From Candidatus Sulfotelmatobacter sp. (GTDB taxonomy: Bacteria; Acidobacteriota; Terriglobia; Terriglobales; Acidobacteriaceae), in assembly GCA_036521895.1 (NCBI GenBank), contig DATDGW010000560.1, positions 1-42,538 of the forward strand: a DNA stretch of 42,538 nt, read 5' to 3'. This document shows positions 1,348-42,344 of the stretch, in pieces. The translations under genes were made by a program, and so were the position numbers. The notes under the pieces were generated by a model that was not told where the DNA came from, ran no database searches, and was given only the letters and a program-made list of their open reading frames with translations. Position 1 is the stretch's first letter. Each line of letters opens with the position of its first letter.

Positions 1348-4300
1348 CTAGCGCTGGCGCACCTCCAGTTGGACCGGTCGTGCGATCGAGCTGACGTCCG
1401 GGTCATAGTACTCATAGACGCGCGACTGGAACGTCTGCGCGCGGATGGGGTACTTGGCTCGCAGGCGAAAATGCAACGTGAGTGTGTCGCCGGGAGCGAT
1501 CGAATCGAAGTAGAGAATTGCTTGTGTCGCGGTGAGTCTGAACTTCTCCAGGCGACCACTCTTAAGGCCGGCGCTTTTCTCAACATGGGTTTGCAAGTCC
1601 TCGCTGAGCAGATCGAATCCGGGCGGGATTCCCAGGTCAACCATCACCATGTTCGCGGCCTTGGGCAAATTGTTTCTGACGGTAGCGGTGGCAGTGGCGA
1701 TGTCATCCTGGGACAGATGAGTGCGATCGTAGGCCACGTTGATGGACATCGGTTCGTTCGCGGGTTTCTCGTCCCAAGGGAGAAAGTAGCTGCCGACCAC
1801 CTGGTAGGCCAGGCCACCCTTACCTTCGAATCGAAGTTCGACGGTGTTGGAGTCCTCCGAACCGATGGATGTTGCCTCGACCCCCTTGAACACGAACTGA
1901 TGCAGCAAGTCATTGTTCTCTGGAGTCAGAGTGAGTCTCTCGACGGGCTTGCCGTTGAGCAGGACCTCCAGCGTACCTTGAACGTCGGCTGTGCCCTTCT
2001 CAGTTGCGAGCAGCAGAGCCCGCAGCGCCATGATTGTCGCTTGTGTCGTGCCCCATATGCCGGAAGCGTCTTTCTTGGAAGCGATGTAACTGAGGGCCTT
2101 GCGCGCAGTGCCGGATGCCTCGCCCCACTTGAGCAGCGCTTGTACCGCGAGCGCCGTGGTTTCAGCGCTCGCACTGGCGCCGGTGGCATAGACACCGGTT
2201 TCGTCTGAGTTCCACCAGGCCTGCTCGTCTTTTTCAGTGCGCGCGTCGAGCAGAAGCTGCATGGCCTGGCGAGTGAAGGCTCGATCCTTTTCACCATTGC
2301 CGGATCCAAATTCTGTGGCAAAGTTGGCGACGATGGCCAGCGTGTAGCTGTCGACCTTGGCGCTCATGTGGCTCTCGATAAACGGCTTCGCTTTTTCGAC
2401 TGCTGGGCCTTGGTACCCAGTGTTCTCAAGCGACCATGCGATGTAGGCGGTGATGCGAAGGACGTCGGAGTTGTAGCGGTTTGTGGCTCCCTCATTAATG
2501 AACTGCGTATCGGGCTTCCAACTTCCATCGGCTTGCTGCTGCGATGCGAGCCACTGCTGGATTCGTGCGATCAGTCGTGGATCTAGGTCGTAGACCTTCG
2601 ACATGTCGCTGAACTCCATAAGACCGTACGCCGTCAGGATCTTGTTGGCGGGTACGTTGCCGAACCAGGAGAAACCGCCGCCCGGAACTTCAAACGTCAG
2701 GAGGCGTTGATAGCCGTTGGCAATGTAACCTTCGGCTTTGGCGTGGACTTCGGGAGTCAGTTTCTTCGTGCGCTTCATGTACTCGAGCGCCAGAACGTTC
2801 GGGTAGGTGCTGGAGGAGGTCTGCTCAAAGCAACCGCCCGGCATGCGAAGAATGCTGTCCATGCCTTCGATCACCTGGCTCAGGGGGCCCGGGTAGAGCC
2901 TGACAAAAATCCTGCTGGCGTCAGGAACGGAACTCGCGGGGAAGATGAGTTCGTGTTGAACCGTGTTTTCCAGGCGTCCGTTAAAGACCATGTTCTGTTC
3001 GCGGCCGTTGGGAATGACTTCGATCTCGCGGACAACGATGTCGGCGCGTTCTGCGCCGCCCTTCATGCGGGCCGAAAGCGTCAGCTTGAACTTGCCGATG
3101 CGCCGGGCTTCGAGAGTGAACTGAGATCCACCGACGCGGGCAGAGTCCACTGCGACGGACTTGTCGGACACATCATCGACCAGTGAGAACCAGTCGTCCG
3201 GTTGCAGTTTCAGGATGACGTCTCCACGCGCACCTGAGTAGTTGTACACGGCTACGGGGATCGAGACTCGATCGCCTTCGGTGAGCGTGACAGGCAGATC
3301 AAGGTCAACGAAGAAGTCTTGGAAGACTTTCAGGCTCGACGTGGCACTGCCTAACGCCCCGTGGGTGGTGGATGCGAGCATTGCCATCCGCCATGTGGTG
3401 ATGGAGTCCGCCACAGGAATCGTGATCGTCGCCGCGCCGCTTTGGTCGGTGACGATCTCGGGATTGATGTAGAGCGCCTCGGGGAAGTAGGAGCGGACGT
3501 GAGCGGTGGGGCCGGGATCCTCTTTCTTGTCCTTGGCGCGAATCGCAATGTTCAAGGTTGTGGCTGTTCCCATGTCGATCGGGCCCGCAACTGGCGCTTG
3601 AGGCATCGCAAGGTCCATAAAATCGCGGCCATTGACGGCAAGGGCGGCCTCGCCCACATTGCCGCCAATGGCCTTAGCGAGTCCATTGCGGGATTCAACA
3701 ATTACACTGGCCGCGTTGACTTCGACGGTCTCGCTCACGGACCCAACAGACAGAACCGTAGAGACCACAGCGCGATCGCGCGGGCGAAGGGTGAGTCCAC
3801 GCCAAGCAGTCTTGAATCCCGCCAAAGACACTCGCAGGTCGTAGCGGCCGGCGGGCAGACCTGCCAGAGTGAATTGCCCTGCACCATTTGCGGCCACGGT
3901 TCGTGTTTTTCCCGTGGAGGTGTCGCGAATCGTGACGCTGGCTCCCGCGACCATTGCGCCGGAGGGGTCGGCGACTGTGCCTACAATTTCCGCGAGGCCG
4001 TTGAAAGGTCCGCGGTCATGTTCGAGGTTGAGGGTAATCGCGTCCGAATCTGGGTGGCCAACGATCTTCCCGCTGCGAACCGCTACATAGGCCGCCATAT
4101 CGTCGGGGCTGTCGAAGCGGTGATCGGGGCCCGCACTGCGCACGATGTAGTGGGTCTTGTCGCGATACCACTGCACAGATTCGAGGCGAAACTGGGTTCC
4201 CCAGGAGTCGAAAAGGTCGGTCCCGCCGGTCTTCGAGATTCTCGCGAAAACCCTGGTCAGATCATCCTTCTCCGGATTGTCGCGGTAGGCACGACTGAGG

Positions 4301-6696
4301 CGTTCGGCCAACTGGTGGACCTGATCCATGAAACGGGCCTGATAACGAGCGGCATAGTCCGGGTATTTCGTCATGGGCAGGGTCCGGCCGAACTCCGTCT
4401 CAAATTTGTTTGCCCCGACTAATTCTGTGTTTGAAAACAAGGCACGCGCAGCGCGGTTGCGCTGTTCGATTTTCGACTCTTCCACCGGTTTGACGATTTC
4501 CGACATCCCGATGGAGTGGATCTCATAGCGGGGCTTCATCACCTCTTGCTCGAGGTAGAAGAACACTTTGGCGAAGCCGGGCTGCTTCTCGGCCAGCGCG
4601 AAGACGGCCTCATCGACGACTTGGACGCCGAGCGCCGCGCTCACGCCTTCGCCTCGAGAGTTGGTCACGTGGAAGCGGATGCGGGCTTCGCCGCCGGGTT
4701 TGTACGCGGAAGCATCGGCCACCGCATCGATCTTGAGTTCATCTGCCGGTTGCACGAAGACGAGGCGGTGATCGGCGATCGCTTGGGCATTGCGCCCAAA
4801 AAGATAAGCATTGAAGTCCACGGTTCCTGCCAGTTCCGGGGTCGCGGTGAGGGAGAATGCGGCGTGGCCGTTCTCGATGTCGAGATCCCGGGTCAGCACC
4901 GTCTGGCCGTCCTTGACGATGTCGAGATAAGCGGCGCCCTGTTTCTTGGTGGAAAGGATTCTCAGGTCAATGCGGTCCCCCGCCTGGTAGATTGCGCGTT
5001 CTGGGCGCAGAAGAATCTGATCCTCACCCTGACGGGTTTGCAGTTGAACCGTGCTCGACGCGTGGTTTCCTTCATCGTCCTGACCTTCGATCTCGAGGGC
5101 CCCTGTTGCGGTAATGGGGCTGATGGTGACCATGGCAACGCCGCCTGCATCGGTGGTCGCACGCTGGTCGACATTGCCTTCCGCGTGGACCTTGAGGCTT
5201 GCGCGGGCCGGTGTTCCGTCGGGGTAAGAGGTCACGATGAAAACCTGATTGTCGAGATTGGGGACAAGCGCGCCTCCCTCCGGAACCGCCATGATGAGTA
5301 GAGGAGATTCGCTGACGGTAATCGGCTCGCCACGAGTCTCGGCGTGCTCCGCGGAATCTTTCACCGTGGCCTCAATCAGCACGCGGGCTGCGCCCTGACT
5401 GAGAGAACGGCCAGCGAAATACTTAGGCAGGGTCAGATCGAAGTGGTAGGTTCCCTCGTGGTCGGTCTTGCCTTGCACGAAGGCCACTTCGAAAACAGAC
5501 ACATCCATGCTGGAGGCTTTGACGGTGATCCCCGCGTCGTCGACCGGTTTGCCAAAGAAGTAGTAGGCACGAACCGTGCCGGTGACGTGATCGCCGGGGC
5601 GGTAGCCGCGCTTCGCCTTGTTGCCGTTACCCGCGAAATCGATGGCGACCTTGAATTTCGGCAGCACGTAGCGTTCGACGTTGAGGGCGATCTCGGCGGT
5701 GTTCGTGGGCGCTTCGCTCTCACCCATCAAAGCACGGAGATGGTAGGTGCCCAAGTTGACTTCATCGGCGAGTCCAAATTCTGCGGAAGCAATTCCGAAC
5801 CGGTCGGTTTGTGTCGCCTTCTTGAATACCTTGTTGCCGCGAGAGTCTTCGACTTCAAAGGTCAGCTTGCGGTTCGCGGCGGCCTCGCGATTGGAACGAT
5901 CGAGCGCCAACGCGCGCACATGAATCGACTGTCCGGGCTGGTAAATCGGTTTCTCGGTGGTGAGAAGAATTGCAACCTTATCTTCGAGCCGTACCGCCTG
6001 CATGAACTCTGTTGACCCAATCGGGGTGTCGACCGAGTAGCGCAATTGATAATTGCCTTCTACGCCGGCCGGGAACCGGAATTGCGCTTCGGTTGTTCCT
6101 CGCCGATTGAGCCGTCCTGAGAAGAGCAAGCGGGATTTCTGCTCGGGCATCAGCAGGTCGACCTGCACAGAGTTGCGCCCGGCAATGACCTCGTCGTGGG
6201 AATCAGTGACGATGACGCGCACCGCAGCATCGCCACCTGTCAAGTAGGATTGCTGGCCCAGAATGTGGAGCACTCGTGTGCGCAGGATTTGAGAGATGGA
6301 TTCCGTGCCTTCGATCGCGGTCGTCTTGCTGTCGCTGTATTCGAAGCGGTAGTGCACGCGGTGCCACACTAGTTCGTCAAGGGCCAGCGGCTTCGCCAGC
6401 TTGATCTGTTCGCGCCAGCTCCCCGGGCCCCCAGCGACCTGGACGTGCTGTTCCACGTGCCCGAGGACTTGGTCCTCCGGATCCAGAATCTCCATGGTGA
6501 GTCGACCCATACCGGAATGAGCCGCGTCGTAGGGAATTACCAGGTTCACGACGCCGTGCCCATAGGTGGCATTGGCGGCCCGTTCGCGGTTGCTGGCCTG
6601 GAACTGTTGAACGGTCACGATTGCAGCAACAATTAGTAGGGCAGGAAGGAACAACAACCGAAGTCTGGATGCGGCGTGTCCATCGGAATCTTCCAT
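1348..6696 (-). CDS. alpha-2-macroglobulin family thioester protein, membrane-anchored, with inserted GspG-like and CarboxypepD_reg-like modules
   Basis: 1782-aa ORF with GGAG 6 nt before the ATG. It has an N-terminal hydrophobic anchor (LLFLPALLIVAAIVTV, no lipobox Cys) and the A2M signature RSYFPEALYINPEIVTD..DSITTWRM. The thioester motif GCFEQT is intact (CFEQ = 2821..2832). A helical TED-like region follows (YIANGYQRLL..GGFSWF..DGSW). Confidence 0.9.
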   Translation of the reverse strand: MEDSDGHAASRLRLLFLPALLIVAAIVTVQQFQASNRERAANATYGHGVVNLVIPYDAAHSGMGRLTMEILDPEDQVLGHVEQHVQVAGGPGSWREQIKLAKPLALDELVWHRVHYRFEYSDSKTTAIEGTESISQILRTRVLHILGQQSYLTGGDAAVRVIVTDSHDEVIAGRNSVQVDLLMPEQKSRLLFSGRLNRRGTTEAQFRFPAGVEGNYQLRYSVDTPIGSTEFMQAVRLEDKVAILLTTEKPIYQPGQSIHVRALALDRSNREAAANRKLTFEVEDSRGNKVFKKATQTDRFGIASAEFGLADEVNLGTYHLRALMGESEAPTNTAEIALNVERYVLPKFKVAIDFAGNGNKAKRGYRPGDHVTGTVRAYYFFGKPVDDAGITVKASSMDVSVFEVAFVQGKTDHEGTYHFDLTLPKYFAGRSLSQGAARVLIEATVKDSAEHAETRGEPITVSESPLLIMAVPEGGALVPNLDNQVFIVTSYPDGTPARASLKVHAEGNVDQRATTDAGGVAMVTISPITATGALEIEGQDDEGNHASSTVQLQTRQGEDQILLRPERAIYQAGDRIDLRILSTKKQGAAYLDIVKDGQTVLTRDLDIENGHAAFSLTATPELAGTVDFNAYLFGRNAQAIADHRLVFVQPADELKIDAVADASAYKPGGEARIRFHVTNSRGEGVSAALGVQVVDEAVFALAEKQPGFAKVFFYLEQEVMKPRYEIHSIGMSEIVKPVEESKIEQRNRAARALFSNTELVGANKFETEFGRTLPMTKYPDYAARYQARFMDQVHQLAERLSRAYRDNPEKDDLTRVFARISKTGGTDLFDSWGTQFRLESVQWYRDKTHYIVRSAGPDHRFDSPDDMAAYVAVRSGKIVGHPDSDAITLNLEHDRGPFNGLAEIVGTVADPSGAMVAGASVTIRDTSTGKTRTVAANGAGQFTLAGLPAGRYDLRVSLAGFKTAWRGLTLRPRDRAVVSTVLSVGSVSETVEVNAASVIVESRNGLAKAIGGNVGEAALAVNGRDFMDLAMPQAPVAGPIDMGTATTLNIAIRAKDKKEDPGPTAHVRSYFPEALYINPEIVTDQSGAATITIPVADSITTWRMAMLASTTHGALGSATSSLKVFQDFFVDLDLPVTLTEGDRVSIPVAVYNYSGARGDVILKLQPDDWFSLVDDVSDKSVAVDSARVGGSQFTLEARRIGKFKLTLSARMKGGAERADIVVREIEVIPNGREQNMVFNGRLENTVQHELIFPASSVPDASRIFVRLYPGPLSQVIEGMDSILRMPGGCFEQTSSSTYPNVLALEYMKRTKKLTPEVHAKAEGYIANGYQRLLTFEVPGGGFSWFGNVPANKILTAYGLMEFSDMSKVYDLDPRLIARIQQWLASQQQADGSWKPDTQFINEGATNRYNSDVLRITAYIAWSLENTGYQGPAVEKAKPFIESHMSAKVDSYTLAIVANFATEFGSGNGEKDRAFTRQAMQLLLDARTEKDEQAWWNSDETGVYATGASASAETTALAVQALLKWGEASGTARKALSYIASKKDASGIWGTTQATIMALRALLLATEKGTADVQGTLEVLLNGKPVERLTLTPENNDLLHQFVFKGVEATSIGSEDSNTVELRFEGKGGLAYQVVGSYFLPWDEKPANEPMSINVAYDRTHLSQDDIATATATVRNNLPKAANMVMVDLGIPPGFDLLSEDLQTHVEKSAGLKSGRLEKFRLTATQAILYFDSIAPGDTLTLHFRLRAKYPIRAQTFQSRVYEYYDPDVSSIARPVQLEVRQR

Positions 6697-6949
6697 GGAG
6701 TCTCCGTGATGCCTTCCGCCATGCTGCTACTGACTGGCTTGCAATCACCATAAGAACGGGCTGTTCCGTTGCTCTTGCGAAGAAGTTAGCTCGCGCGCCA
6801 TGGGCCCGAATCAGTGGGATGGAAAGGAGACTTTTGTTGCGGGGCTTCGTAACTACGCTTTGGTAGCTGCGGTGGGGAGTATCCCCTGGAGGCTCTAATC
6901 GGGGGTGGAAGCTTTGCTCCGCGGTGGAGGTGGGACTTTAAAGACCACA

Positions 6950-6991
6950 CAAGAAAAGATGGCTGACGGGGGTTCCTATCGCTCCGTCAGC
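6950..6991 (-). terminator. candidate intrinsic terminator downstream of the small peptide gene
   Basis: The minus-strand RNA reads gGCUGACGG, a 14-nt loop, CCGUCAGCc, then CAUCUUUUCUUGUGUGG. That is a 9-bp GC-rich stem followed by a U-rich tail. It starts about 80 nt after the stop codon at 7074..7076. Confidence 0.45.
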
Positions 6992-7073
6992 CCAAAGATT
7001 GCGAACCCAAAGATTCGGCTCAATGACGACCGCTGGTTTCGTCTGCGCGGTCGGCGTTTTGGCCGTCAGCTTA

Positions 7074-7247
7074 CTAGCTCAACGGCGGAAGGGTCGTCGA
7101 GCAGTTGGGCTGGCGGGGTGGGCACAGAATGAGTGGGCCCCCGTCTGCGGCGGAAATGGGTTGAACACTTGCAGCGATGAAAGTACCTACCATCCCTACG
7201 GCCAGAATCGCGATCCTGATTGCCAACTTTGCATTCATCTTTACCAT
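7074..7247 (-). CDS. small secreted Cys/Pro-rich peptide precursor (57 aa), family unknown
   Basis: AAGGAG (7260..7255) is followed by 7 nt and then ATG at 7247. The product is MVKMNAKLAIRIAILAVGMVGTFIAASVQPISAADGGPLILCPPRQPNCSTTLPPLS, with a basic n-region, a hydrophobic core and an A-x-A-like cleavage site, leaving about 24 mature residues with C-x6-C. The 89-aa version in the track starts upstream of the sigma-54 promoter, so the shorter form is preferred. Confidence 0.55.
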   Translation of the reverse strand: MVKMNAKLAIRIAILAVGMVGTFIAASVQPISAADGGPLILCPPRQPNCSTTLPPLS

Positions 7248-7316
7248 CGTCTTGCTCCTTAGTTCCTGGGATTTTGTTTCCTTGCTCGGGCCGTCCGTCG
7301 CAAGTGACTTTAGTAA

Positions 7317-7332
7317 TGCAAGCCGCATGCCA
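7317..7332 (-). promoter_or_regulatory. sigma-54 (RpoN) -24/-12 promoter
   Basis: The minus strand reads t-TGGCATG-CGGC-TTGCA-tt, against the consensus YTGGCACG-N4-TTGCW. That is 15/16 core matches with exact GG/GC spacing. It lies about 70 nt upstream of the peptide ATG and 145 bp from the divergent sigma-54 activator gene. Confidence 0.6.
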
Positions 7333-7379
7333 AACCCGACCAAGATGGTGTGTGCGGTGCTGACAACCGCAATTTGCCG

Positions 7380-7394
7380 GAAAACCGCGTTTTC
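7380..7394. promoter_or_regulatory. perfect palindrome GAAAAC-CGC-GTTTTC, possible activator or IHF-region operator
   Basis: A 6-bp inverted repeat with a 3-bp spacer lies about 50 bp upstream of the -24 element, inside the divergent intergenic region. Confidence 0.2.
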
Positions 7395-7475
7395 GGTCCT
7401 CGTCTCAGACCCCGGTCAAAGATCGTTCGGGGCCAACAGTCCAACAAAAGCGCTAGTGGGTAACACTTATGTTAG

Positions 7476-9476
7476 GTGGAAGGGATGTCGGGGCCGGTAG
7501 GGTCCGGGTATACTCATTGCGTCATGGGCGATTCGGGCGAAAAGGCTGTCGCCGCCATGGGTGGGGCGCGGCTCGAAGCGGTAAGTGGGCCCCTTAAAGG
7601 GACGCTCTTTCCCCTGATGGGGGATGAGATCTCGATCGGTCGAGATCCGTCCAATGAAATCTCGTTGCTCGATTCCCTGGTATCGCGGCGCCACTGCGTC
7701 ATCCGTAAGGAAGCGAGCGGATTCCGGCTTCAGGATCTGGAGAGCCGCAACAACACTTTTGTCAGCGGGGTCCCGGTAATGGATCGGGTGCTTGTGCACG
7801 GGGACCAGATCCGGGTGGGTAATTCGATCCTTGTCTTCCAAGGGTCAAATAGTGAGTCGGGTCTCGGCAATGCCTGCTTACAACTCGATGCGACTCCGGT
7901 GCCGGGCGCCGCGACCGTAATCCTGCGAAGGGAGGATGCCCGGTACCTGCAGCCTTCCCGGCCGGAAGGACTCCCCGCGACGGCTAAAACGGTTCGCGAC
8001 CTCAATGTGCTGCTCGAGTTCAGCCGGACGCTGAACTCGGTGCGCGGCCTGGCAGCTCTGCAAGAGAAGGTGCTGGAGGCGGTTCTGGCAATAGTCCCCG
8101 CGGATCAAGCTGCTGTATTGCTGACCGAAAAAGGAGTCGCTGGCTTCTCTTCGATTGTGGGTCAGCACCGCCGGCTGGGGCCCAATCAGCCGATCCATGC
8201 CAGCCAGACGATCCTGAACCGCGTGCTGGAGGAGAATCTGGCCGTACTTTCCAACGATGTCCAAAGCGACGACGCCTACCGTGAGTCCGAGAGCCTGCTG
8301 GAACGACGGGTCCACTCGGTCCTGGCTGTCCCGCTCGAAGTGCAGGAAAAGATTCTAGGAGTGATGTACCTGGACGCCAGTTCTCCGGGCGCGCGCTTCG
8401 ATTCGGACCTTCTGCAATTGGTGACGACGCTGGGAAACATCACTGCGCTCGCGATTGAAAACGCGGGGCACGTCGAGATGCTGGGAGGTGAGAACCGCCG
8501 ACTGAACGAGGAACTGAGCATACACCACAGCATGATCGGGGAAAGCAAGGCCATGCACGAGGTGTATGCATTCGTTTCCCGGGTTGCGGGGCGGGATTCG
8601 ACGGTCCTTATATCCGGCGAGAGCGGCACCGGAAAAGAACTGGTGGCGCGCGCCGTCCACATGAACAGTGGCCGGGCCGACAAGCCGTTTGTCGCTATTA
8701 ACTGCGCGGCCATTACTGAAACCTTGCTGGAAAGCGAGCTGTTCGGGCACGAACGAGGGGCGTTTACAGGCGCAGTCTCACAGAAGAAAGGGAAGCTCGA
8801 GGTCGCCGAAGGCGGCACCGTTTTTCTGGATGAGATCGGGGAGTTGGCGGTTCCGATGCAGGCCAAACTCCTCCGCGTTTTGCAGGAGAGGGAATTCGAA
8901 CGAGTAGGCGGTACCCGTCCCATCAAACTCGACGTCCGACTGATCGCCGCGACGAATCGCGAGCTGAAGGAGGCATCGCGCACGGGAGCTTTTCGACCGG
9001 ACCTCTATTATCGCCTCAATGTGGTGGCGCTTCATATGCCGGCGCTCCGCGAGCGGCGAGAGGATATCCCAATGCTGGCGGCATTCTTCGCGACGCAATA
9101 TGGCGAAAAAGTGAAGCGGAAGGTAGCGGGCATCTCTCCGCAGGCTCGTGCCTGCCTAACGAGCTATGCTTGGCCGGGCAACGTACGCGAATTGGAAAAC
9201 GCTATCGAACGAGCCGTGGTGCTGGGCTCAACCGAATTAATCCTCGCCGAGGACTTGCCGGACTCGATTTTGGAAGAAACCGCCGCCACTGGGGAACCAG
9301 TGAGCGCGCTGCACGATGGCATCCGCGAGGCGAAGAAGGTGCTGATCGAGAGGGCCATCGAGCAGGCGAATGGAAATTACACCGATGCTGCGAAAATCCT
9401 GGGAGTGCATCCCAACCATTTATTTCGTTTGGTTCGCACGCTCAACCTCAAGCCAAAAAGGCAGCGACAAGGGTAA
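7476..9476 (+). CDS. sigma-54-dependent transcriptional activator with FHA-GAF-AAA+-Fis HTH architecture
   Basis: The FHA signature is [29 protein letters not shown]-like middle region follows. The AAA+ domain has Walker A GESGTGKE and the sigma-54 contact loop GAFTGA (8757..8774). A C-terminal Fis-type HTH is present ([18 protein letters not shown]). The ORF maximum starts at GTG 7476; the true start is more likely ATG 7524 or 7557 ([15 protein letters not shown]). Confidence 0.9.
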
Positions 9477-9508
9477 GCGGAATGATCCGGCTATAATTAC
9501 CCGATCCT

Positions 9509-12205
9509 ATGGCTCTTTCCTCAGGCACCCGATTCGGTCCCTACGAAATCCTCTCTCCTGTTGGCGCTGGCGGGATGGGGGAGGTCTATCGGGCCAAGGA
9601 TACCCGCCTCGACCGCACTGTCGCCATTAAGGTTCTGCCCGCGCATCTTTCCTCTGACCCGGAATTGAAACAGCGCCTGGAGCGCGAGGCCAAGGCTATT
9701 TCTGCGCTGCAGCACGCGAATATCTGCACGCTTTACGATATCGGCACGCAGGACGGCACCACCTTCCTGGTCATGGAGTTTCTCGAAGGCCAGACTCTTG
9801 CGGAGCGTCTGGCAAAAGGTGCACTGCCCCTAGATCAGGTTCTGAAGATCGGTACGGAAATCGCGCAGGCCCTGGAGAAAGCGCATCAACAAGGAATTGT
9901 CCACCGTGATCTGAAACCGGCGAACGTCATGCTGACGAAAGCCGGCGCGAAGCTGATGGACTTCGGACTGGCGAAGCCCGAGATGTCGATTGCGTCGAAG
10001 GCCGCCGGGCCGTTTACTCCCTCGACGCCCACGATGAATCTTGCTTCGCTCACAGCGGCTACGTCGCCGCTCACGCAGAAGGGTTCCATCGTCGGAACCT
10101 TTCAATATATGGCCCCGGAAGTTCTGCAAGGAGCAGAAGCCGACGCGCGCAGCGATCTGTTCAGCTTCGGCTGCGTTCTCTACGAAATGGTGACCGGTCG
10201 CCGCGCATTCGAAGGCAAATCGCAACTCAGCGTATTCACTGCCATTTTGGAAAAAGATCCGGAGCCCATCAGGGCCAGCCAGCCTTTGACGCCGGCCATG
10301 CTTGAACGCGTGGTGGGCGCATGCCTCGCCAAAGATCCCGCCGATCGGTTCCAATCGGCGCACGACGTTGCGATGGATCTGCGCTGGCTCGCGGAAGCTG
10401 CGCCGGCGGAATCCGCAAGACCAGCTTCGCTGTTCAACAAGTCCTGGACTGCCGGATGGGCAGCCTTTCTGTTTGGATTCGTTGCCCTCGCCGGACTCGC
10501 CGGATACCGCTGGGCAAGATCCTCAGGGGATCGTGTATCGATCCACGCCGAAGTTCCCATGTCGGACAAGTTTTCCCTGGATGCCACCGGGGACGCAGGG
10601 GGCATGCCCGTGCTTTCCCCACAGGGCGACAAAATCGCCTTCGTCGCTCACTCGGGTGAAACCAAGCTGCTGTGGGTGCGCTCGCTCAGCACCGATTCGG
10701 CGCAAGCCCTCGAAAGCACCAACGGCGCTGTGCATCCTTTCTGGTCACCGGATGGCCGCTACATCGGGTTCTTTGCTGACGGCAAGTTGATGAAGATCGC
10801 CGCCACGGGGGGCCCGGTCGCGGTCTTGGCCGATGCTCCCAATTCACGCGGAGGAACTTGGGGCGTCAGCGACGTGATTGTGTTCAGCCCAGATTTTCAA
10901 GGTGCGCTGGCAAAAGTAGGCGCCCAGGGGGGTCCAGCAACCCCAGCGACGGTGATCGATAAAGCGAAGCACTCCACGCATCGCTGGCCCTGGTTCCTGC
11001 CCGACGGCAAACATTTTATTTTTCTGGCAACTAGTCACAGCGGAGGCGATCCCAAGCAGAACGGAATCTACTTCGGGTCAATCGACAGCTCGGAGACCCA
11101 CCTGGTGGTGGTGTCCGATGCGGCGGCAGAGTATGCATCTGGCTATCTCCTCTACCCGGCCAACACGGCTCTGGTGGCACAAACTTTCGATCCACAAAAG
11201 GGCAGATTGTCCGCGTCCCCCATTCCGCTGGTGAACAACCTGCGCAACGATGTGGGTGTGTGGCGCAGCATTTTCGCGGTCTCGCAGGACGGACTCTTGA
11301 TCTACCAGGCGGGCCGGGCGGCCGCGGCAAACAGCCGGATGGTGTGGTTCGACCGTTCGGGCAAGGCGCTAGCGGACTTCGATCCTCATGAGGCCTCGGT
11401 GATTGATGTGCGCCTCTCACCCGATAACAAGCGAGTTGCATTCGCAAGCGGACTCGGTATTTGGACGTTCGACCTTGAGCGCAAGACCAAGACGCGCATC
11501 ACCTTCGACCAACAGTTGGTGCGGGAACCCGCATGGTCTCGGGACGGCAAAGCGCTGGTATTCTCAGCGCAAGTCACCGCAGGCGGCGGCAACGTTGAAA
11601 TCCGCTCCAAAGCCGCCGATGGCAGTGGCAGCGAAAAGACATTGTTTGCCGAGCAGAACAACTTCCACTTCCCGGACTGGTCGCCCGACGGGAAATACCT
11701 AACCTACCTTTGGGGCGATGGCGAAAAGATGGTGTCGCTGTGGATACGCCCCGCCACCGGAGAGGGCAAGCCGGTTGCAGTCGTGGAACCGCCATCGCAG
11801 CAATCCAATATTTACTTTTATCGAATTTCGCCGGATGGCCACTGGGTCGCCTACGCGTCGGACGAATCCGGACAGCAGGAGCTTTACATCACGAGCTTCC
11901 CGGAGGGCAAAGGGAAATGGAAGATTTCATCGGGTGGCGGGTATTACGCAGCCTGGAGCGGAAATAGTAAAGAACTCTTCTATTCGGCTCTGACTGACGA
12001 CTTCTACGCTTGTCCCGTAACCCCAAAGGGAGCGGAGATCGAAGTCGGCACACCGCAGCATCTGTTCCACACCACGTTGCCCGCGGTCGGCGTATTGTTC
12101 GACGTGTCGTCCGACGGAAAGCGGTTGCTGGTGAACCACGCGGAGGAGGAGGCGCAAGCTCCGCTGCGGTTAGTCACGAACTGGCTCGCGGAGTTGAAGA
12201 AATGA
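9509..12205 (+). CDS. Hanks-type Ser/Thr protein kinase with one TM segment and a periplasmic TolB/DPP-IV-N-like double beta-propeller
   Basis: Kinase motifs are GAGGMGEVYRA, VAIK, HRDLKPANVM, DFGLAK and the APE-like YMAPE. The TM segment is WAAFLFGFVALAGLAGY. Repeated SPDG/SPQG..F blades follow, and the C-terminus is LRLVTNWLAELKK. The gene starts 32 nt after the activator stop on the same strand. Confidence 0.9.
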   Translation: MALSSGTRFGPYEILSPVGAGGMGEVYRAKDTRLDRTVAIKVLPAHLSSDPELKQRLEREAKAISALQHANICTLYDIGTQDGTTFLVMEFLEGQTLAERLAKGALPLDQVLKIGTEIAQALEKAHQQGIVHRDLKPANVMLTKAGAKLMDFGLAKPEMSIASKAAGPFTPSTPTMNLASLTAATSPLTQKGSIVGTFQYMAPEVLQGAEADARSDLFSFGCVLYEMVTGRRAFEGKSQLSVFTAILEKDPEPIRASQPLTPAMLERVVGACLAKDPADRFQSAHDVAMDLRWLAEAAPAESARPASLFNKSWTAGWAAFLFGFVALAGLAGYRWARSSGDRVSIHAEVPMSDKFSLDATGDAGGMPVLSPQGDKIAFVAHSGETKLLWVRSLSTDSAQALESTNGAVHPFWSPDGRYIGFFADGKLMKIAATGGPVAVLADAPNSRGGTWGVSDVIVFSPDFQGALAKVGAQGGPATPATVIDKAKHSTHRWPWFLPDGKHFIFLATSHSGGDPKQNGIYFGSIDSSETHLVVVSDAAAEYASGYLLYPANTALVAQTFDPQKGRLSASPIPLVNNLRNDVGVWRSIFAVSQDGLLIYQAGRAAAANSRMVWFDRSGKALADFDPHEASVIDVRLSPDNKRVAFASGLGIWTFDLERKTKTRITFDQQLVREPAWSRDGKALVFSAQVTAGGGNVEIRSKAADGSGSEKTLFAEQNNFHFPDWSPDGKYLTYLWGDGEKMVSLWIRPATGEGKPVAVVEPPSQQSNIYFYRISPDGHWVAYASDESGQQELYITSFPEGKGKWKISSGGGYYAAWSGNSKELFYSALTDDFYACPVTPKGAEIEVGTPQHLFHTTLPAVGVLFDVSSDGKRLLVNHAEEEAQAPLRLVTNWLAELKK

Positions 12206-12343
12206 TTCGAGTGCGGGATTCTGTAAACGAATCTGGGTTGCGTGGGGGACATGCACCGGTCAGTCTTGAGGATACGAACCTTCTGGGATAAGTGACATCG
12301 GGCAACACGGCTTCTTTTTAATCCCTACAAGGAGGTCTAACAG

Positions 12344-12736
12344 ATGCTCAAATCGATCGCAGTCGTGGTTGGCGCGTACCTGCTGTCGGTTGTTCTAGTC
12401 GTGTCATCGGACCCATTGCTTTCTCGGCTGTTCCCGGGCGATTTCGTCCGAGGCCGCGTCCCCTCTGACACTGCCCTCATGGCGAGCACCGGGTTCTTCG
12501 TCGTCGTCTCGATCCTGTGCGCCTGGCTCTGCGCCCGCTTTGCGCCGAAACCGGCAGCGCGCCATCTGCTCTGGTTCTTCATCATCGGGGAAGTGATGGG
12601 AATCGTCGCGACTATTCCCAATTGGGGCAAGGGCTGGCCGCACTGGTACTGGTTGTCCTGGTTGCTTACTTGGCCGGTGAGCTGCTGGATGGGCCTGCTG
12701 CTGGCTGGACGCCGGACTGAAGCGCGGACGGCGTAA
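12344..12736 (+). CDS. small integral membrane protein (about 4 TM), function unknown
   Basis: A strong RBS (AAGGAGG) lies 8 nt before the ATG. Four hydrophobic stretches are visible. No family was recognised. Confidence 0.7.
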   Translation: MLKSIAVVVGAYLLSVVLVVSSDPLLSRLFPGDFVRGRVPSDTALMASTGFFVVVSILCAWLCARFAPKPAARHLLWFFIIGEVMGIVATIPNWGKGWPHWYWLSWLLTWPVSCWMGLLLAGRRTEARTA

Positions 12737-12762
12737 GTTCTCACGCAGTGTTGGAGTGGAGT

Positions 12763-15324
12763 TTACTTCAGGCCGCGCACCAGAAACAGATTGGCAAGAT
12801 CACGCTGGAAGGTTGTCGCGCAAGCCTTTCCGTCTGCTGACAACGCCAATGGCCCGAGGAACTGAGCTCCTGGTTCAGGAACCTTCACTACCAGCCAAGG
12901 TTCTTTGCGACGCGTGGTCACCCCGAGACGGCTGATCTTGATGCTGGCGGGCCCGCGCTGTTGCAGGAACAGGTATCGTCCGTCACCGCTCCATCGCACG
13001 ACGCTTTCTCCTTGCAAGTCGGCGATGGTTTTGGAATCTCCGCCGCCAACCGGAGAGAGCAGCAGCTTGTGCGGGTCCACGGTGATGAACCACTTGCCGT
13101 CGGGCGAGACCCGCGTGCCACGCGTTCCTTCGGGCGTGAGAGGAGTCGATTTGTTTGTTTCCAGGTCGTACATCCACGTGCGGGTTGTGTGACCGGTTTC
13201 ATTGCCAGTGAACAGGATGTGCTTGTTGTCGGGGAACCACTCCACGCCATCGAAGTGCATGCCTTCAATTTTTGGGAAGCGCGATTCCCCGGGGCCGGTC
13301 GGAAGCAACATCAGACTCGACGTCCCCCCCTCATGGTGGATGCAGGCCACCCACTTCCCATCCGGCGAAAGCGAAGGCCGGTTCCCGGAGCCCAGCTGTA
13401 TGGCGGGAGAACCGTCTGTCTTCCTCAAATAGATTGCGGAGTTGCGCCCCTGGCCGCTGGAAAGCTCGACGAAGACAATGGATTGGGCGTCACTGGAAAG
13501 GTCATACATCAAGGAAGAATCGAGCCACGCCAGATCGCGTTGTGCCGTCCCGTTCGGCGGTAAATAGTGGATGCCTAGACGGGAATTGACCGTGGTCAGC
13601 AGGACGCGGCCATCCCGGGCTACATCCTGCATCACAATCATTCCGCCAGTTTGAGAAACCAGTCGCTGCGCACCGGAGAGGGTCACCGCGTAGAGTGCGG
13701 GATCGCCGCCGGGCTGGCCACCAGAGAACCAGACTTCGCGATTGTCCGGTGACCAGTTCAAGGCGCCGATGGCACGCCATCCCCGGGAAAGAACCTGCCG
13801 CGGATGGTTTGGTCCAATCACGCAGAGGGCATAGTCGCCGACTTCGACGTCAAAATCGAAGAACGCAACCAGCTTTCCGTCCGCCGAAACTCGCGGCATC
13901 ATGGGTGGCCGCTTTTCCGTCTCGTACAACACCGTCCCGATGGGATATTCGAGCCGGAACTTTCCGCCGACAACGCGCACTACGGCGAGCGACTCCCCGT
14001 CCGGCCCCCAATCCGCGCCGCTCACGCCTTCAAGCACCTCGCGCGGAGCTCCGCCACCAAACGGCACGCGGGCCAACGTGCCGACATCCTCTCCCCCGAG
14101 AAGAATCGCCATCTCGCCGCTGGGCGAGATCGCGAGCACGCGCCCACTGGGTAGCACCAAGGGCTGGGCTTCGCGATTGCCAGGCTGCGCGGAAAATAAC
14201 GTGGAGGGTGCGCCATCCCACTCGGCACTGTAGACAACCGTGTCCCCGGGAGCGAACTTGGCGGAGGTGACATCCCCACGGCGAAACGTCAAACGCCGGT
14301 ATGACGGTGGCTCGGGAGGTGGACTGTATCTCCGTTCATAGGAGATGCGCAACCCGAGCCCAAGCAAGATTCCAGCCAGCAACCCTGCGCCGATCCAGAG
14401 CCGGATGTGAGATGTGTTACGTGGGCGTGGATTTGGCGCGAGTGCGAAGTTACTGAAATCCATTTCTTCCCGCAACTCTTCGAGGGCCACTTTCACGTCC
14501 GCCATGGTTTGCCAGCGGCGTTCAGGATCTTTCTTCAGGCAGCGGCTGATGATGCGGTCTAGCTCCGGCGGAACATCCGCTACGGCTTGCGAGGCCGGTT
14601 GTGGATCCTTGTAGAGCACCGCCGATAGCGACGACAGCTTGGAGCCACCCGCGAACGCACGTTGGCCCGTAGCCATTTCATAGAGCACGGAGCCGAACGA
14701 AAAAACGTCGGACCGGGTGTCGACCTTCTTGCCGTCGGCCTGCTCGGGAGACATGTAGGCGACGGTTCCGAGGATAGTACCTTCCTCAGTGAGCGGGGAC
14801 GCTTCGCCGTGCAGAGTTTCGGCGTAGGCGTCGGCACCGGCTGGTTCGCTGAGCTTGGCCAATCCGAAATCCAGAATCTTGACTACGCCCAGCGGCGTGA
14901 CGATCACATTCGAGGGCTTCAGATCGCGATGCACGATTCCAGCCGCGTGCGCAGCGGCCAACGCATCCGCGATCTGCACGGCATACTTCAACACATCGCG
15001 GATCCGGAGCCCCTTGCGCCCGATCAGGTGATCGAGCGTATCTCCCGCCACGTACTCCATGGCGATGTATTGGATCGGCTTTCCGTCGACTTCCTGCGTG
15101 TCGATGTCGTAGATCGTGACGATGTTCGGATGGTTGAGAGATGACGCGGCCTTGGCTTCCTGCACGAAGCGTCGTTCGCGGTCTGCATTCAGGGCGGCCG
15201 TGGAGAGAATCTTGATGGCAGCAGTTCGGCCAAGACGAGAATCCACCGCCCTATAGACCACACCCATGCCACCGGCCCCCAACTTGGCCTCAATGCGGTA
15301 CGAGCGAAGTGATTTGCCGATCAT
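12763..15324 (-). CDS. Hanks-type Ser/Thr protein kinase with a TM segment and a TolB-like beta-propeller sensor (second paralog)
   Basis: Kinase motifs are GAGGMGVVYRA, AAIK, HRDLKPSNVI, DFGLAK and YMSPE. The TM segment is IGAGLLAGILLGLGL. SPDG/SADG blades follow. The ORF maximum is 15354; ATG 15324 (MIGKSLRSYRI) gives the usual short N-terminus. Confidence 0.9.
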   Translation of the reverse strand: MIGKSLRSYRIEAKLGAGGMGVVYRAVDSRLGRTAAIKILSTAALNADRERRFVQEAKAASSLNHPNIVTIYDIDTQEVDGKPIQYIAMEYVAGDTLDHLIGRKGLRIRDVLKYAVQIADALAAAHAAGIVHRDLKPSNVIVTPLGVVKILDFGLAKLSEPAGADAYAETLHGEASPLTEEGTILGTVAYMSPEQADGKKVDTRSDVFSFGSVLYEMATGQRAFAGGSKLSSLSAVLYKDPQPASQAVADVPPELDRIISRCLKKDPERRWQTMADVKVALEELREEMDFSNFALAPNPRPRNTSHIRLWIGAGLLAGILLGLGLRISYERRYSPPPEPPSYRRLTFRRGDVTSAKFAPGDTVVYSAEWDGAPSTLFSAQPGNREAQPLVLPSGRVLAISPSGEMAILLGGEDVGTLARVPFGGGAPREVLEGVSGADWGPDGESLAVVRVVGGKFRLEYPIGTVLYETEKRPPMMPRVSADGKLVAFFDFDVEVGDYALCVIGPNHPRQVLSRGWRAIGALNWSPDNREVWFSGGQPGGDPALYAVTLSGAQRLVSQTGGMIVMQDVARDGRVLLTTVNSRLGIHYLPPNGTAQRDLAWLDSSLMYDLSSDAQSIVFVELSSGQGRNSAIYLRKTDGSPAIQLGSGNRPSLSPDGKWVACIHHEGGTSSLMLLPTGPGESRFPKIEGMHFDGVEWFPDNKHILFTGNETGHTTRTWMYDLETNKSTPLTPEGTRGTRVSPDGKWFITVDPHKLLLSPVGGGDSKTIADLQGESVVRWSGDGRYLFLQQRGPASIKISRLGVTTRRKEPWLVVKVPEPGAQFLGPLALSADGKACATTFQRDLANLFLVRGLK

Positions 15325-15687
15325 GCGTATAGCCCTGGAACCCTTTGGCCGCACCTTGCGGGGGCACGAAATCTACTGATTCGCGGCCGCAACAAATCAA
15401 AAATTCAAATGAAGGTCGTCACAAGACGACAAAGAAAGAACTCAAGAGAAGCAGGTGCGGACGACGATATGCTCATGCTTGCTGAGCCTGTGTGACAGCA
15501 ATTCTACCGCAGAAGGGCGGTATCTTGCTCTTTACTGTGCGGGTCACATTATTCATTTGCCGAAGGACCCCCATGCGAGATCGGGCGTTGCCTTTTCATG
15601 CGCGCTGCCATTCGTTCGATGCCCTACACGGGGTGCGCCCTTTGCAACACTACACAACTGGTGGATGTCATGCTCATTGATTGAGTC

Positions 15688-15715
15688 TTGACATCGGGGC
15701 TGTGGCAAATAGAAT
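15688..15715 (+). promoter_or_regulatory. candidate sigma-70 promoter for the TonB-dependent receptor
   Basis: TTGACA, a 16-nt spacer, then TAGAAT, about 35 nt upstream of the ATG at 15750. It lies inside the N-terminal extension of the track ORF, which argues for the 15750 start. Confidence 0.35.
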
Positions 15716-15749
15716 GACTGACACTTCCAAATTCATCGAGGAAAATGTC

Positions 15750-29969: not shown

Positions 29970-31061
29970 ATGAAACTCGATCAAGGATTACTGCACAGCC
30001 TTCCCAAGGTTCTCTTGCACGAGCATTTGGATGGTGTGCTGCGGCCTCAGACGGTAATTGAGTTGGCCAGAGACGCGCATTATACCGACCTTCCAACAGA
30101 CTCGGCCCAGGCCTTATCCGAGTGGTTCTTTCGCGGAGCAAATCAAGGGAGTCTGGCGAAATATCTTGAGGGCTTTGCTCACACCATCGCCGTGATGCAG
30201 ACCGAAGAGGCGCTACAACGCGTCGCGTATGAGCAAGCCGAGGATCTGAGCCGGGATGGAATGGTATATTTCGAGACTCGCTTTGCGCCCGTTTTTCATG
30301 CCCAGAAGGGATTGACGCATCAGCGGATTGTTTCGGCAGTGCTGAAAGGACTGGAGCGGGGACGAAAAGACTTCGGGATTTCCTCCGGGTTGATCATCTG
30401 CGCGATGCGCAACATGAATACTTCACTGGAAATGGCGGAACTTGCTGTCGACTTTCGCGCGCGCGGAGTGGTCGGTTTCGATCTGGCGGGCGAGGAAGGT
30501 GGGTATCCACCCAAAAAACATGTGGACGCCTTTCATTACATCCAGCGCGAGAACTTCAACATCACGATTCATGCCGGCGAGGGCTACGGGAAAGAATCGA
30601 TCTGGCAGGCGATTCAATATTGCGGGGCGCATCGCATCGGGCATGGAACGCGCCTGATCGACGATATTGCGGTGGTCGACGGCAAAGCGGTGAAGTTGGG
30701 CGACCTGGCTCAATATGTTCTCGACAAGCGCATTCCGCTCGAGATCTGCCTGCTTAGCAACGTTCATACCGGCGCTACTCCCAGCCTGGCGGAGCATCCC
30801 TTCAAGATTCTTTATCAAGAAAAATTCCGAGTGACTTTGAATACGGACAACCGCTTGATGAGCCGTACTTCGATGACTCAGGAATTTGAGGCCGCTGCGG
30901 AAACCTTTGGACTCTCCCTGGCGGACTTTGAAAAGATCACCATCAACGCGATGAAGAGTGCGTTCCTGCCTTACACGCAGCGCTGCGATTTTATCTACTC
31001 AGTTATCAAGCCCGGTTACGCCCGAATCCGGGAGTCGATAGCATCCCAAACTTCCCATTAA
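29970..31061 (+). CDS. add: adenosine deaminase
   Basis: Motifs are LPKVLLHEHLDG, FDLAGEE, HAGE and NTDN. The track ORF begins at TTG 29958; ATG 29970 (MKLDQ) is preferred. Confidence 0.9.
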   Translation: MKLDQGLLHSLPKVLLHEHLDGVLRPQTVIELARDAHYTDLPTDSAQALSEWFFRGANQGSLAKYLEGFAHTIAVMQTEEALQRVAYEQAEDLSRDGMVYFETRFAPVFHAQKGLTHQRIVSAVLKGLERGRKDFGISSGLIICAMRNMNTSLEMAELAVDFRARGVVGFDLAGEEGGYPPKKHVDAFHYIQRENFNITIHAGEGYGKESIWQAIQYCGAHRIGHGTRLIDDIAVVDGKAVKLGDLAQYVLDKRIPLEICLLSNVHTGATPSLAEHPFKILYQEKFRVTLNTDNRLMSRTSMTQEFEAAAETFGLSLADFEKITINAMKSAFLPYTQRCDFIYSVIKPGYARIRESIASQTSH

Positions 31062-31085
31062 CTTCGCGCAGTGCACGGAGATTTC

Positions 31086-32159: not shown

Positions 32160-32180
32160 TTATGGCTGGTTCGGAGCGCC

Positions 32181-35417: not shown

Positions 35418-35460
35418 TGGATTCCACTTTGAATGTCGAGTGCCCCCTCATGCCAGACGC

Positions 35461-36279: not shown

Positions 36280-36305
36280 TTTATCGACTCCATCGGAATT
36301 GCCGC

Positions 36306-42297: not shown

Positions 42298-42344
42298 AAT
42301 TTCAGCTCCTTGCGGTTGTCGCAAGACCACGATCAAATCAACAT

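Follow-up and report, generated by a model that had tools for sequence, protein, structure and literature searches.

A conserved cassette of an exported-peptide gene, an FHA-type sigma-54 activator and a propeller kinase in a Candidatus Sulfotelmatobacter contig

Described systems of related design

In the ZraP/ZraSR system (PMC4987338; Appia-Ayme 2012, cited there), the sigma-54 promoters are divergent and the exported product represses its own sensor. A locus of related layout lies in the 42.5 kb of DNA analyzed here (contig DATDGW010000560.1 of Candidatus Sulfotelmatobacter sp., G+C ~58–59%; the whole stretch is called the window below), where the gene for a 57-aa peptide is divergent from the gene for an activator of sigma-54–dependent transcription and the gene for K2, a Hanks-type Ser/Thr kinase with a propeller ectodomain, is convergent to that of the activator. 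An earlier note on this DNA had joined these genes, a second propeller kinase (K1), a decayed third copy and an alpha-2-macroglobulin (A2M) into one module for envelope surveillance or autocrine signalling. All the components that it claimed are present in the sequence, and its observation was right; its interpretation was half right, in that the peptide, the activator and K2 very probably form a cassette, of which A2M and K1 are not members.

The locus resembles ZraP/ZraS–ZraR in that a sigma-54 activator is encoded divergently from a small exported protein, its main local target. Its parts are different: Zra couples a histidine kinase to a receiver-domain activator, and ZraP is a ~140-aa zinc-binding chaperone, whereas the cassette has a Hanks propeller kinase that lies outside the activator operon, FHA and GAF inputs, and a predicted ~23-aa unit with one disulfide. 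MgrB, of 47 aa, has a hydrophobic stretch near its N-terminus and conserved cysteines in the periplasm; it is induced by PhoQ–PhoP and modulates the sensor PhoQ (PMC2789325). The peptide of the window is likewise very small and has an N-terminal hydrophobic segment and cysteines, and induction by the pathway with feedback on the sensor is proposed here as well. MgrB, however, is retained in the membrane, belongs to a two-component system and has a sigma-70 promoter, whereas the cassette peptide has a predicted AxA-type cleavage site and occurs also as tandem precursors, which speaks for release and not for anchoring. ZraP/ZraSR and MgrB/PhoQ are earlier examples of feedback exerted on a system by one of its own small exported products.

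In Mycobacterium tuberculosis, the transmembrane Hanks kinase PknH adjoins EmbR, an FHA-dependent transcription activator (PMC8636726). The cassette shares with this pair a Hanks kinase with an extracellular sensor that is encoded beside an FHA-bearing activator; in contrast to the cassette, EmbR is a sigma-70 activator of the SARP type with a C-terminal FHA domain, and PknH/EmbR has neither a peptide target nor a link to sigma-54. Jelsbak et al. (PNAS, 2005; cited in PMC12288465) reportedly described sigma-54 activators of Myxococcus xanthus with an N-terminal FHA domain and proposed that they receive signals from Ser/Thr kinases. Unlike the cassette activator, these FHA enhancer-binding proteins act in developmental cascades and on many targets, and we know of no fixed kinase–activator–peptide cassette among them, nor of a GAF domain described in such an arrangement.

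As in Agr and ComCDE, a small exported peptide is encoded beside a sensor kinase and a regulator, and the peptide gene would be the regulated target. Those systems rely on histidine kinases and on proteins dedicated to processing or export, and their pherotypes diverge fast; the cassette peptide instead carries a Sec-type signal, has no exporter of its own, and combines a strongly conserved core at its N-terminal side with a variable loop. A dedicated processing or export protein with a cognate receptor, the mark of peptide quorum sensing, was not found at the locus, nor were the marks of a bacteriocin or of a ribosomally synthesized and post-translationally modified peptide (RiPP).

Literature searches found no description of the cassette or of the peptide family, and a review of sigma-54 regulons across phyla mentions neither Acidobacteria nor FHA inputs. 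The cassette is an undescribed, well-conserved variant of known signalling designs, and no described system combines these parts. To our knowledge, no peptide-signalling loop that runs through Ser/Thr phosphorylation and sigma-54 has been described. Acidobacteria are among the most abundant bacteria of soil and peat, and their genomes code for a great many Ser/Thr kinases with TolB-like ectodomains that still await a ligand and a target. The cassette is a rare clean case, comprising a single kinase, a single FHA-type sigma-54 activator, a single promoter with a defined palindrome and a single tiny exported product; it makes signalling from a kinase to an FHA activator testable by reconstitution, and it nominates a concrete candidate ligand peptide.

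Conservation, proteins and control region of the cassette

The comparison spanned ~170 related loci of uncultured peat and soil Acidobacteria, all from metagenome-assembled genomes (MAGs) or metagenome contigs, with palsa, bog and peat datasets as the source of L005 and L084–L163; the closest relatives of the window are MAGs labelled Acidobacteriaceae or Candidatus Sulfotelmatobacter (Terriglobales, Korobacteraceae). A peptide-seeded scan with one genome per species gave 80 loci and was followed by tblastn searches with the proteins of the window. For a reciprocal test, the K2 ectodomain alone was used as the metagenome query, yielding another 80 loci (83–97% identity), 60 of which had flanks long enough to be informative for the activator. 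The presence of A2M was judged in the 30 K2-seeded loci that extended at least 3 kb past the peptide.

Activator and peptide genes pointed away from each other in each of the 72 activator-linked loci. The activator was present in 57 of the 60 informative K2-seeded loci, as was the peptide wherever the contig reached that far. Peptide genes of the type seen in the window (class 1, 56–60 aa) were always divergent from an orthologue of the FHA–GAF activator (79–93% identical), and most class-1 genome loci carried a K2 orthologue, 85–97% identical in its ectodomain, tail-to-tail with the activator. With EBP for the activator (an enhancer-binding protein), pep for the peptide and arrows for direction, the gene order was K2→ ←EBP pep→ in 42 loci, ←EBP pep→ K2→ in L029 and L133, and K2→ ←pep EBP→ in L145; L144, whose contig ends before the activator, is consistent with the last. 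The gap between K2 and the activator measured from 13 bp to 6.5 kb and was filled with unrelated genes, in the window with K1 and a 130-aa membrane protein. No family, such as a phosphatase, exporter or protease, recurred in this gap in more than four loci, and both outer flanks of the cassette varied between loci. Since synonymous sites are saturated across the set (proportion of synonymous differences, pS, 0.55–0.76), the synteny does not merely reflect recent descent. We are highly confident that the conserved cassette consists of the peptide, the activator and K2 and excludes A2M. Of the co-localization that the earlier note proposed to check, that of the peptide, its sigma-54 promoter (60 of 60 regions), the activator and K2 recurs; A2M (1 of 30 loci) and K1 (one other locus) drop out. 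As far as sequence comparison tells, the 14-kb region is a three-gene signalling cassette that is interrupted and flanked by lineage-specific genes, namely A2M, K1, the small membrane protein and a truncated propeller.

The divergent FHA-type sigma-54 activator that had been claimed was confirmed, with the domain order FHA (PF00498, E = 9e-17), GAF, AAA+ (Sigma54_activat, E = 3e-72) and HTH_8 and with intact motifs. Its AAA+ domain has GAFTGA at residue 428, Walker A and B motifs and the arginine finger RPDLYYR, and the Fis-type helix-turn-helix domain is C-terminal, all as in enhancer-binding proteins of the NtrC/NifA class. The phosphothreonine pocket of the FHA domain is complete (pattern GR..SRRH..NNT, with GR at residues 55–56, SRRH at 70–73 and NNT at 92–94). 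The open reading frame (ORF) opens at an in-frame GTG at 7476, and conservation begins with a TATACT element and the ATG at 7524 (block CG.GTATACTCAT..CGT.ATG). TATACT and this ATG are conserved, whereas the sequence upstream of the block is of variable length; translation of the activator therefore probably begins at 7524, and its mRNA would be nearly leaderless.

Both of the full-length propeller kinases in the earlier note proved complete: K1 and K2 each have the full set of Hanks motifs (GAGGMG, VAIK, HRDLKPAN, DFG and APE in K1; GAGGMG, AAIK, HRDLKPSN, DFG and SPE in K2), one transmembrane helix and an ectodomain with PD40 and TolB profile matches. The likely start of K2 is Met11 of the ORF that opens at 15354, in line with orthologues that begin with MIGKSL. 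Its ectodomain of 523 aa (residues ~341–863), a predicted TolB-like beta-propeller, follows the single transmembrane helix and has 7366 homologous matches. An AlphaFold2 model of this ectodomain, built on a shallow alignment of 30 sequences and used for the fold class only, was all-beta, with a mean predicted local distance difference test (pLDDT) score of 67 (80–93 in the C-terminal 300 residues; the first 100 are unreliable). When the model was compared with the PDB by Foldseek, TolB, S9-peptidase propellers and the YWTD propellers of LRP matched at E ~1e-11, but their TM scores reached just 0.3–0.47. The PD40 repeats and the modelled all-beta fold outside the membrane are those expected of a propeller sensor of the TolB/S9-peptidase type. 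Precomputed annotations place PF26549 and PF26550 on the ectodomain of the K2 orthologues P0161–P0280; both were absent from the Pfam scan of K2 itself.

K1, a paralogue of K2 with a PD40 propeller, begins 33 nt downstream of the activator, and an orthologue at the same position was found in one other locus (L009). We judge K1 to be a lineage-specific insert and not a conserved cassette member. The proposal of a sensing propeller kinase beside the activator thus stands for the convergent K2, the conserved partner, and not for the same-strand K1. It is moderately probable, in our view, that K2 signals to the activator. K2 might instead be linked to the activator by position alone, travelling along while a GAF ligand or other Ser/Thr kinases control the activator. 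The convergent orientation would fit such a positional link, as would the absence of K2 near the activator in ~5–15% of loci, the occasional presence of K1 or of a kinase with a BON domain in the neighbourhood, and the very large family of propeller-kinase paralogues (the 7366 matches). Yet K2 and the activator stay adjacent in three different gene orders and in spite of many independent insertions, with both outer flanks changing, and they do so at saturated synonymous divergence; the phosphothreonine-binding residues of the FHA domain are retained as well, and we consider a purely positional link quite improbable.

We aligned 61 distinct intergenic regions between activator and peptide. From the activator outward they contain, in order, its ATG, TATACT, a palindrome, the CAAACAAAA block, a variable stretch, a −24/−12 promoter, a 5′-untranslated region (5′-UTR) block, and AGGAG with the peptide ATG (Table 1). 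As the earlier note had it, a gene for a putatively secreted peptide lies directly upstream of A2M on the same strand, with a sigma-54–type promoter 70 nt upstream of the ORF. This promoter, TGGCATGCGGCTTGCA, has the spacing of sigma-54 elements (TGGCAC-N5-TTGCA), with exactly 10 nt from GG to GC, and is the sole match to TGGYAY-N5-TTGCW in the 42.5 kb (0.13 expected by chance). All of the 60 distinct orthologous upstream regions kept the pattern TTGG-N9-TGC[AT]T, with the GG-N10-GC spacing, at the same position. The palindrome has a single occurrence in the window, against 0.22 expected by chance, and 54 in 2.5 Mb of fetched loci, 52 of these at the fixed intergenic position. No second palindrome or sigma-54 motif was found near K2, K1 or A2M in the window.

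The 5′-UTR block begins ~20 nt after the −12 element (about +10) and can form a stem of 5+3 bp. Neither the whole window at the Rfam gathering threshold nor positions 6850–7500 at E ≤ 1 gave a match, and the block is therefore not a known RNA family. At the other end of the gene, 54 of 64 distinct class-1 loci have an equivalent GC-rich hairpin with a T-run ~60–130 nt past the peptide stop; the stems differ in sequence between loci, with pairing retained. A simple terminator scan missed the terminator of the window because its loop is 14 nt long. Sequence conservation shows the peptide unit to be monocistronic, with a predicted mRNA of ~370 nt that carries a stem-loop at its 5′ end and stops at a terminator of its own.

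The peptide family and the proposed feedback on K2

The peptide of the window (MVKMNAKLAIRIAILAVGMVGTFIAASVQPISAADGGPLILCPPRQPNCSTTLPPLS) has a Sec-type N-terminus and two cysteines. A charged n-region is followed by a hydrophobic core of ~18 residues and by (I/V)-x-A in front of A-D-G-G-P, an arrangement compatible with a Sec signal and with cleavage by signal peptidase I at an AxA-type site. The predicted mature unit, ADGGPLILCPPRQPNCSTTLPPLS, has ~23 aa and one Cys-x6-Cys loop. The 57-aa query retrieved 159 homologous proteins, all from metagenomes or MAGs and every one named, where its source gave a name, as a hypothetical protein; the peptide had zero Pfam or NCBIfam matches. Invariant positions are G21, A25, A26, Q29, A34-D-G-G-P38, C42, P44, C49 and P54, giving the pattern A-D-G-G-P..C.P....C..P in the mature part. 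Among class-1 genes, the ratio of nonsynonymous to synonymous change (dN/dS) was 0.07 in the DGGPxxLCPP core, 0.38 in the signal region and 0.36 in the tail. The 159 homologues and the core dN/dS of 0.07 at saturated synonymous sites indicate that the peptide is a real gene. Four residues within the Cys loop are hypervariable (proportion of nonsynonymous differences, pN, 0.48; 23 loop variants in 51 sequences); owing to the saturation of synonymous sites, we state hypervariability alone for the loop interior and give no dN/dS.

Several other assignments of the peptide were considered and set aside. A double-glycine leader was rejected, the N-terminus being a classical Sec-type signal, and so was a lipobox, in view of the Leu at position −1 of 'LILC' and of the large distance between the Cys and the hydrophobic core. 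A RiPP was rejected in view of the missing modification and export genes, and a Bowman–Birk-like protease-inhibitor loop was dropped when the would-be P1 Arg proved not to be conserved. No modification enzyme, immunity gene or ABC exporter recurs beside the precursor across the variable flanks, and no dedicated exporter or protease gene in or beside the cassette is conserved across loci.

A profile search over 1.84 billion representatives gave 71 peptide clusters at 50% identity, among which at least two (P0403 and P0450) are spurious repetitive matches. The cluster sequences inspected were mostly 42–60 aa long and shared the design DGGP(I/L)..C..C. Some precursors carry two to four tandem mature units behind a single signal peptide: three units of ADGGPILTCSPKDKDCKENLPV in P0401, four units in P0402, three in P0455, and two each in P0404, P0408, P0428 and P0458. 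The units abut directly, for example with ...LPV followed at once by ADGGP... (loci of tandem precursors: L168:2403-2798, L169:1363-1758 and L170:1278-1580). The P0402 and P0401 loci are complete class-1 cassettes with a divergent activator (69–78% identical), sigma-54 motif, 5′-UTR block and terminator; the P0402 loci have the strict palindrome, the P0401 locus a variant with one mismatch (TAACACAAATGCTA). From these tandem-unit precursors we argue that the ~22-aa unit is the functional entity, and they suggest that the product is released and not membrane-anchored. The family thus comprises ~70 clusters at 50% identity in which the named members examined are all 'hypothetical', and its tandem-precursor members are undescribed.

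A second class of peptide genes encodes ~51 aa (MKRAIRISILMVGLVGTFIAAAVQQVPAADGGPLILCPPRQPNCQTTLPPQ, starting MKRAIR...), with a mature part nearly identical to that of class 1. In the class-2 loci (L014, L018–L019, L026, L028, L030–L031, L034, L036–L081 and L083, with the peptide near 10001), the activator, the kinase and A2M were all not found within 10 kb, and none of 55 distinct upstream regions had the sigma-54 motif. All 55 kept TATAAT, with TTGAC 7–9 nt further upstream; a canonical TTGACA-N17-TATAAT promoter was rejected on account of this short distance. The conserved neighbours are genes for an E1 dehydrogenase and a DUF58 protein, an upstream gene for an uncharacterized 307-aa protein, and a convergent gene for a 744-aa DUF255/DsbH-like thioredoxin protein. 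Class 2 is more widespread than class 1, and at least eight MAGs hold both.

Taken together, the parts can be read as a pathway from K2 through the FHA activator to the peptide, with the released peptide acting back on K2; as a whole this reading is plausible, our belief in it falling only a little short of our doubt. The K2 propeller would sense a periplasmic cue and K2 would autophosphorylate on threonine, as its domain content suggests. The FHA domain would then read the phosphothreonine of K2, or the activator would itself be phosphorylated, in either case releasing the AAA+ ATPase; the domains and the linkage of K2 with the activator point to this step, to which the GAF domain might add a second, small-molecule input. 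The activator would bind TAACA-N4-TGTTA and open the sigma-54 promoter ~130 bp away, in keeping with the conservation and position specificity of these cis elements, and the sole product would be the monocistronic peptide mRNA. Sec export and cleavage would release the ~22–23-aa unit ADGGP(L/I)xLCPP-x4-C-xxLPP with one disulfide loop, or two to four such units in some lineages. The released unit would be a ligand or modulator of the K2 propeller, closing a feedback loop of either sign, and the TATAAT-driven paralogue elsewhere in the genome would supply basal peptide.

The last step, by which released peptide feeds back on K2, we regard as possible but somewhat doubtful. The canyon of the TolB propeller binds short disordered TolB-box peptides with the core DG[ST]GW (PMC2821528). 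In a similar way, the modelled K2 ectodomain matches TolB structurally and the mature peptide opens with the invariant A-D-G-G-P. Unlike in the TolB–colicin case, however, the two motifs share only D-G and one G, and K2 presents a kinase ectodomain with extra, poorly modelled N-terminal sequence; we treat the apparent likeness of DGGP to the TolB box as a lead. The peptide loop built from Hanks-kinase and sigma-54 parts that the earlier note envisaged is possible, and is strengthened by the tandem-repeat precursors and the TolB-like sensor. Its fullest form, a self-contained peptide autoinduction circuit (autocrine or quorum) without a two-component system, is rather unlikely in our estimate: the unit would be the propeller ligand, the FHA–GAF activator would read phosphothreonine, the peptide gene would be the sole target, and the TATAAT paralogue would set the basal level. 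In lineages with two to four tandem units, such a circuit would involve multivalent binding. If true, one of the very numerous orphan propeller kinases in Acidobacteria would thereby have gained a ligand.

Several points weigh against a pathway from K2 to the peptide and back. K2 is convergent to the activator and is not co-transcribed with it; another kinase could dock on the FHA domain, given the 7366 homologues of the K2 ectodomain, and the GAF domain could be the principal input of the activator. K2 was not found within 10 kb in a few loci (L001/L010, L022 and L027; L090, L095 and L137), and three K2-seeded loci lack the activator–peptide pair. In a mirror-tree analysis, the distances of the mature peptide correlated with those of the K2 ectodomain at a partial r of ~0.18, the same as for the kinase domain, an outcome that did not separate feedback from a pure-effector role; the interior of the Cys loop is hypervariable while the K2 ectodomain is at least 83% identical. 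DGGP and the TolB box are only weakly alike, and the sequences all come from MAGs or metagenome contigs. As an observation that also bears on the pairing, L024 carries a different Ser/Thr kinase, with a BON domain and not a propeller (L024:3104-5110, + strand), ~1 kb downstream of the sigma-54 peptide gene, with K2 not within reach.

The missing co-variation signal with the K2 ectodomain would be expected if the peptide were output only, that is, if K2 and the activator sensed an unrelated envelope or environmental cue and the peptide were an effector (protective, metal- or redox-active, antimicrobial or surface-modifying) without action on K2. So would the existence of a housekeeping-type class with a nearly identical mature sequence and neither kinase nor activator within 10 kb (the 55 distinct class-2 upstream regions), among conserved metabolic and redox genes; the TATAAT paralogue would then be the housekeeping isoform and the sigma-54 copy the stress-inducible one. 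Tandem units fit an effector too, as such precursors are known for effector peptides as well. Genes for immunity, transport or modification, however, are not conserved beside the peptide, as a bacteriocin or RiPP would need, an entire kinase–activator pathway with a 23-aa peptide as its single conserved cis target is closer to feedback or autoinducer designs, and the modelled sensor fold of K2 is of a peptide-binding kind. We hold a role as output only to be doubtful, though a serious contender, and give the same weight to the division into housekeeping and stress-inducible isoforms.

The macroglobulin and other neighbours

The macroglobulin with an intact thioester that had been claimed was found: A2M has GCFEQ at residue 1289, and its single hydrophobic segment, at the N-terminus, lacks a lipobox cysteine. 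Its domains are MG2, the bait region (A2M_BRD), A2M, the thioester domain TED (E = 2e-41) and the receptor-binding domain (A2M_recep), as expected of a thioester A2M. In these macroglobulin (MG) domains, the bait region, a TED with CxEQ and the N-terminal hydrophobic segment it resembles the described bacterial A2Ms (ECAM/YfhM, which is paired with PBP1c, and the MagD type). In contrast to both, it lacks a lipobox and has no pbpC or Mag operon nearby; no Mag operon was found in the window, and no pbpC or other transglycosylase/transpeptidase gene in the window or beside four A2M orthologues described below, so that the lipoprotein anchor and pbpC pairing of the ECAM/YfhM type are both missing. 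As a further observation, a CarboxypepD_reg domain is inserted at residues 904–982. By sequence, the C-terminal half matches structures of metazoan A2M, CD109, insect TEP1 and complement C3/C4/C5 at E 1e-49 to 1e-11, and none of the 37 structure matches at E ≤ 1e-10 is a solved chain named as bacterial.

In the earlier note, A2M, the peptide, the activator and the kinases were one envelope-attack response, with A2M as a protease trap induced by read-through of the peptide terminator. A2M does lie on the same strand, 373 nt past the peptide, in the window, and it follows the peptide also in three related loci, L005 and L006 (86% identity) and L091 (76%); the terminator of the window, with its large 14-nt loop, went uncalled in the simple scan. 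Against this, A2M did not follow the peptide in 29 of the 30 informative K2-seeded loci, nor in most genome loci (present in 2 of ~25), including L004, whose peptide is 96% identical to that of the window. The peptide terminator is conserved, and downstream of it, no more than 100 nt from the start codon of A2M, a block of sequence is conserved among the four loci that carry A2M. Orthologues of A2M (72–78% identity) occur in four other genomes in four different neighbourhoods, with no peptide, activator or K2 found near them, and the window holds no second sigma-54 motif or palindrome. Because A2M is rarely linked, the terminator is conserved, A2M has its own upstream block and the orthologues have unrelated neighbourhoods, the read-through reading is unsupported. 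The comparative data largely refute the four-part envelope module, which we consider barely credible. This negative result matters, as the macroglobulin that had suggested envelope surveillance is, by our assessment, a passenger outside the conserved cassette.

Two of the four A2M orthologues adjoin a purine-catabolism cluster (L164:1-7742 and L166:1-7734), which hints that a position beside such a cluster may be the older one of A2M. The window has the same cluster at ~30000–42336, ~25 kb from A2M, with genes for xanthine dehydrogenase subunits, urate oxidase, OHCU decarboxylase, an amidohydrolase, adenosine deaminase and a nucleoside permease.

Table 1. Coordinates of the features of the window, with the basis of each assignment or a remark
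Feature	Position	Strand	Basis or remark
PD40 propeller fragment	140–1186	−	ORF and profile matches
Alpha-2-macroglobulin, 1782 aa	1348–6696	−	ORF and domain profiles
Peptide intrinsic terminator (predicted), GGGCTGACGG / CCGTCAGCC then ATCTTTTCTT	6951–6993	−	Folding and cross-locus comparison
Peptide, 57 aa	7074–7247	−	ORF, homologues
Ribosome-binding site AAGGAG	7255–7260	−	7 nt before ATG; AGGAGCA kept in 61 distinct loci
5′-UTR block CACTTGCGACGG...CCGAGCAAG	7280–7306	−	Short stem-loop near transcript 5′ end; nearly invariant
Sigma-54–type promoter TGGCATGCGGCTTGCA	7317–7332	−	−24 GG, −12 GC; 70 nt upstream of peptide ORF
Second conserved intergenic block CCAACAAAAG (orthologue consensus CAAACAAAA)	7441–7450		Alignment
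Palindrome TAACA-N4-TGTTA	7461–7474		~130 bp upstream of −24 element; candidate activator site (upstream activating sequence or operator)
−10-like TATACT	7509–7514	+	9 nt before activator ATG 7524
FHA–GAF–AAA+–HTH_8 activator	ORF 7476–9476, conserved start 7524	+	Profiles, motifs, orthologues
Kinase K1	9509–12205	+	Profiles, motifs
Small membrane protein, 130 aa, 3–4 transmembrane helices	12344–12736	+	Helix prediction
Kinase K2	ORF 12763–15354, likely gene 12763–15324	−	Profiles, motifs, orthologue starts

The decayed third kinase copy was also recognized, as the propeller fragment that lies just outside the span of 1348–15354 assigned to the module by the earlier note. It aligns with residues 547–890 of K1 at 36% identity and is equivalent to the last ~350 residues of a K1-like kinase, without a signal peptide, a transmembrane helix or a kinase domain. 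The fragment follows directly after the A2M stop and was not found after A2M in L006. It looks like a kinase gene that was truncated upon the arrival of A2M. The small membrane protein has no family match; it lies between K2 and the activator also in L005, L009, L084, L115 and L143 (~80% identical) and is the sole insert of this gap seen more than a few times.

Contigs with a clearly acidobacterial peptide or cassette occur in MAGs labelled Binatia, Verrucomicrobiia, Dormiibacterota or 'proteobacterium' (L023, L033, L040, L058, L062, L064, L067 and L078), and these labels probably reflect mis-binning. Beyond K2, at 15681–19697 on the + strand, the window encodes an outer-membrane beta-barrel protein of 1338 aa (OMP_b-brl_4), which begins with a CarboxypepD_reg domain and matches Plug weakly; barrels of this composition are typical of Acidobacteria. 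This TonB-dependent-receptor–like gene is kept beside K2 only in the closest relatives, L004–L006 and L084.

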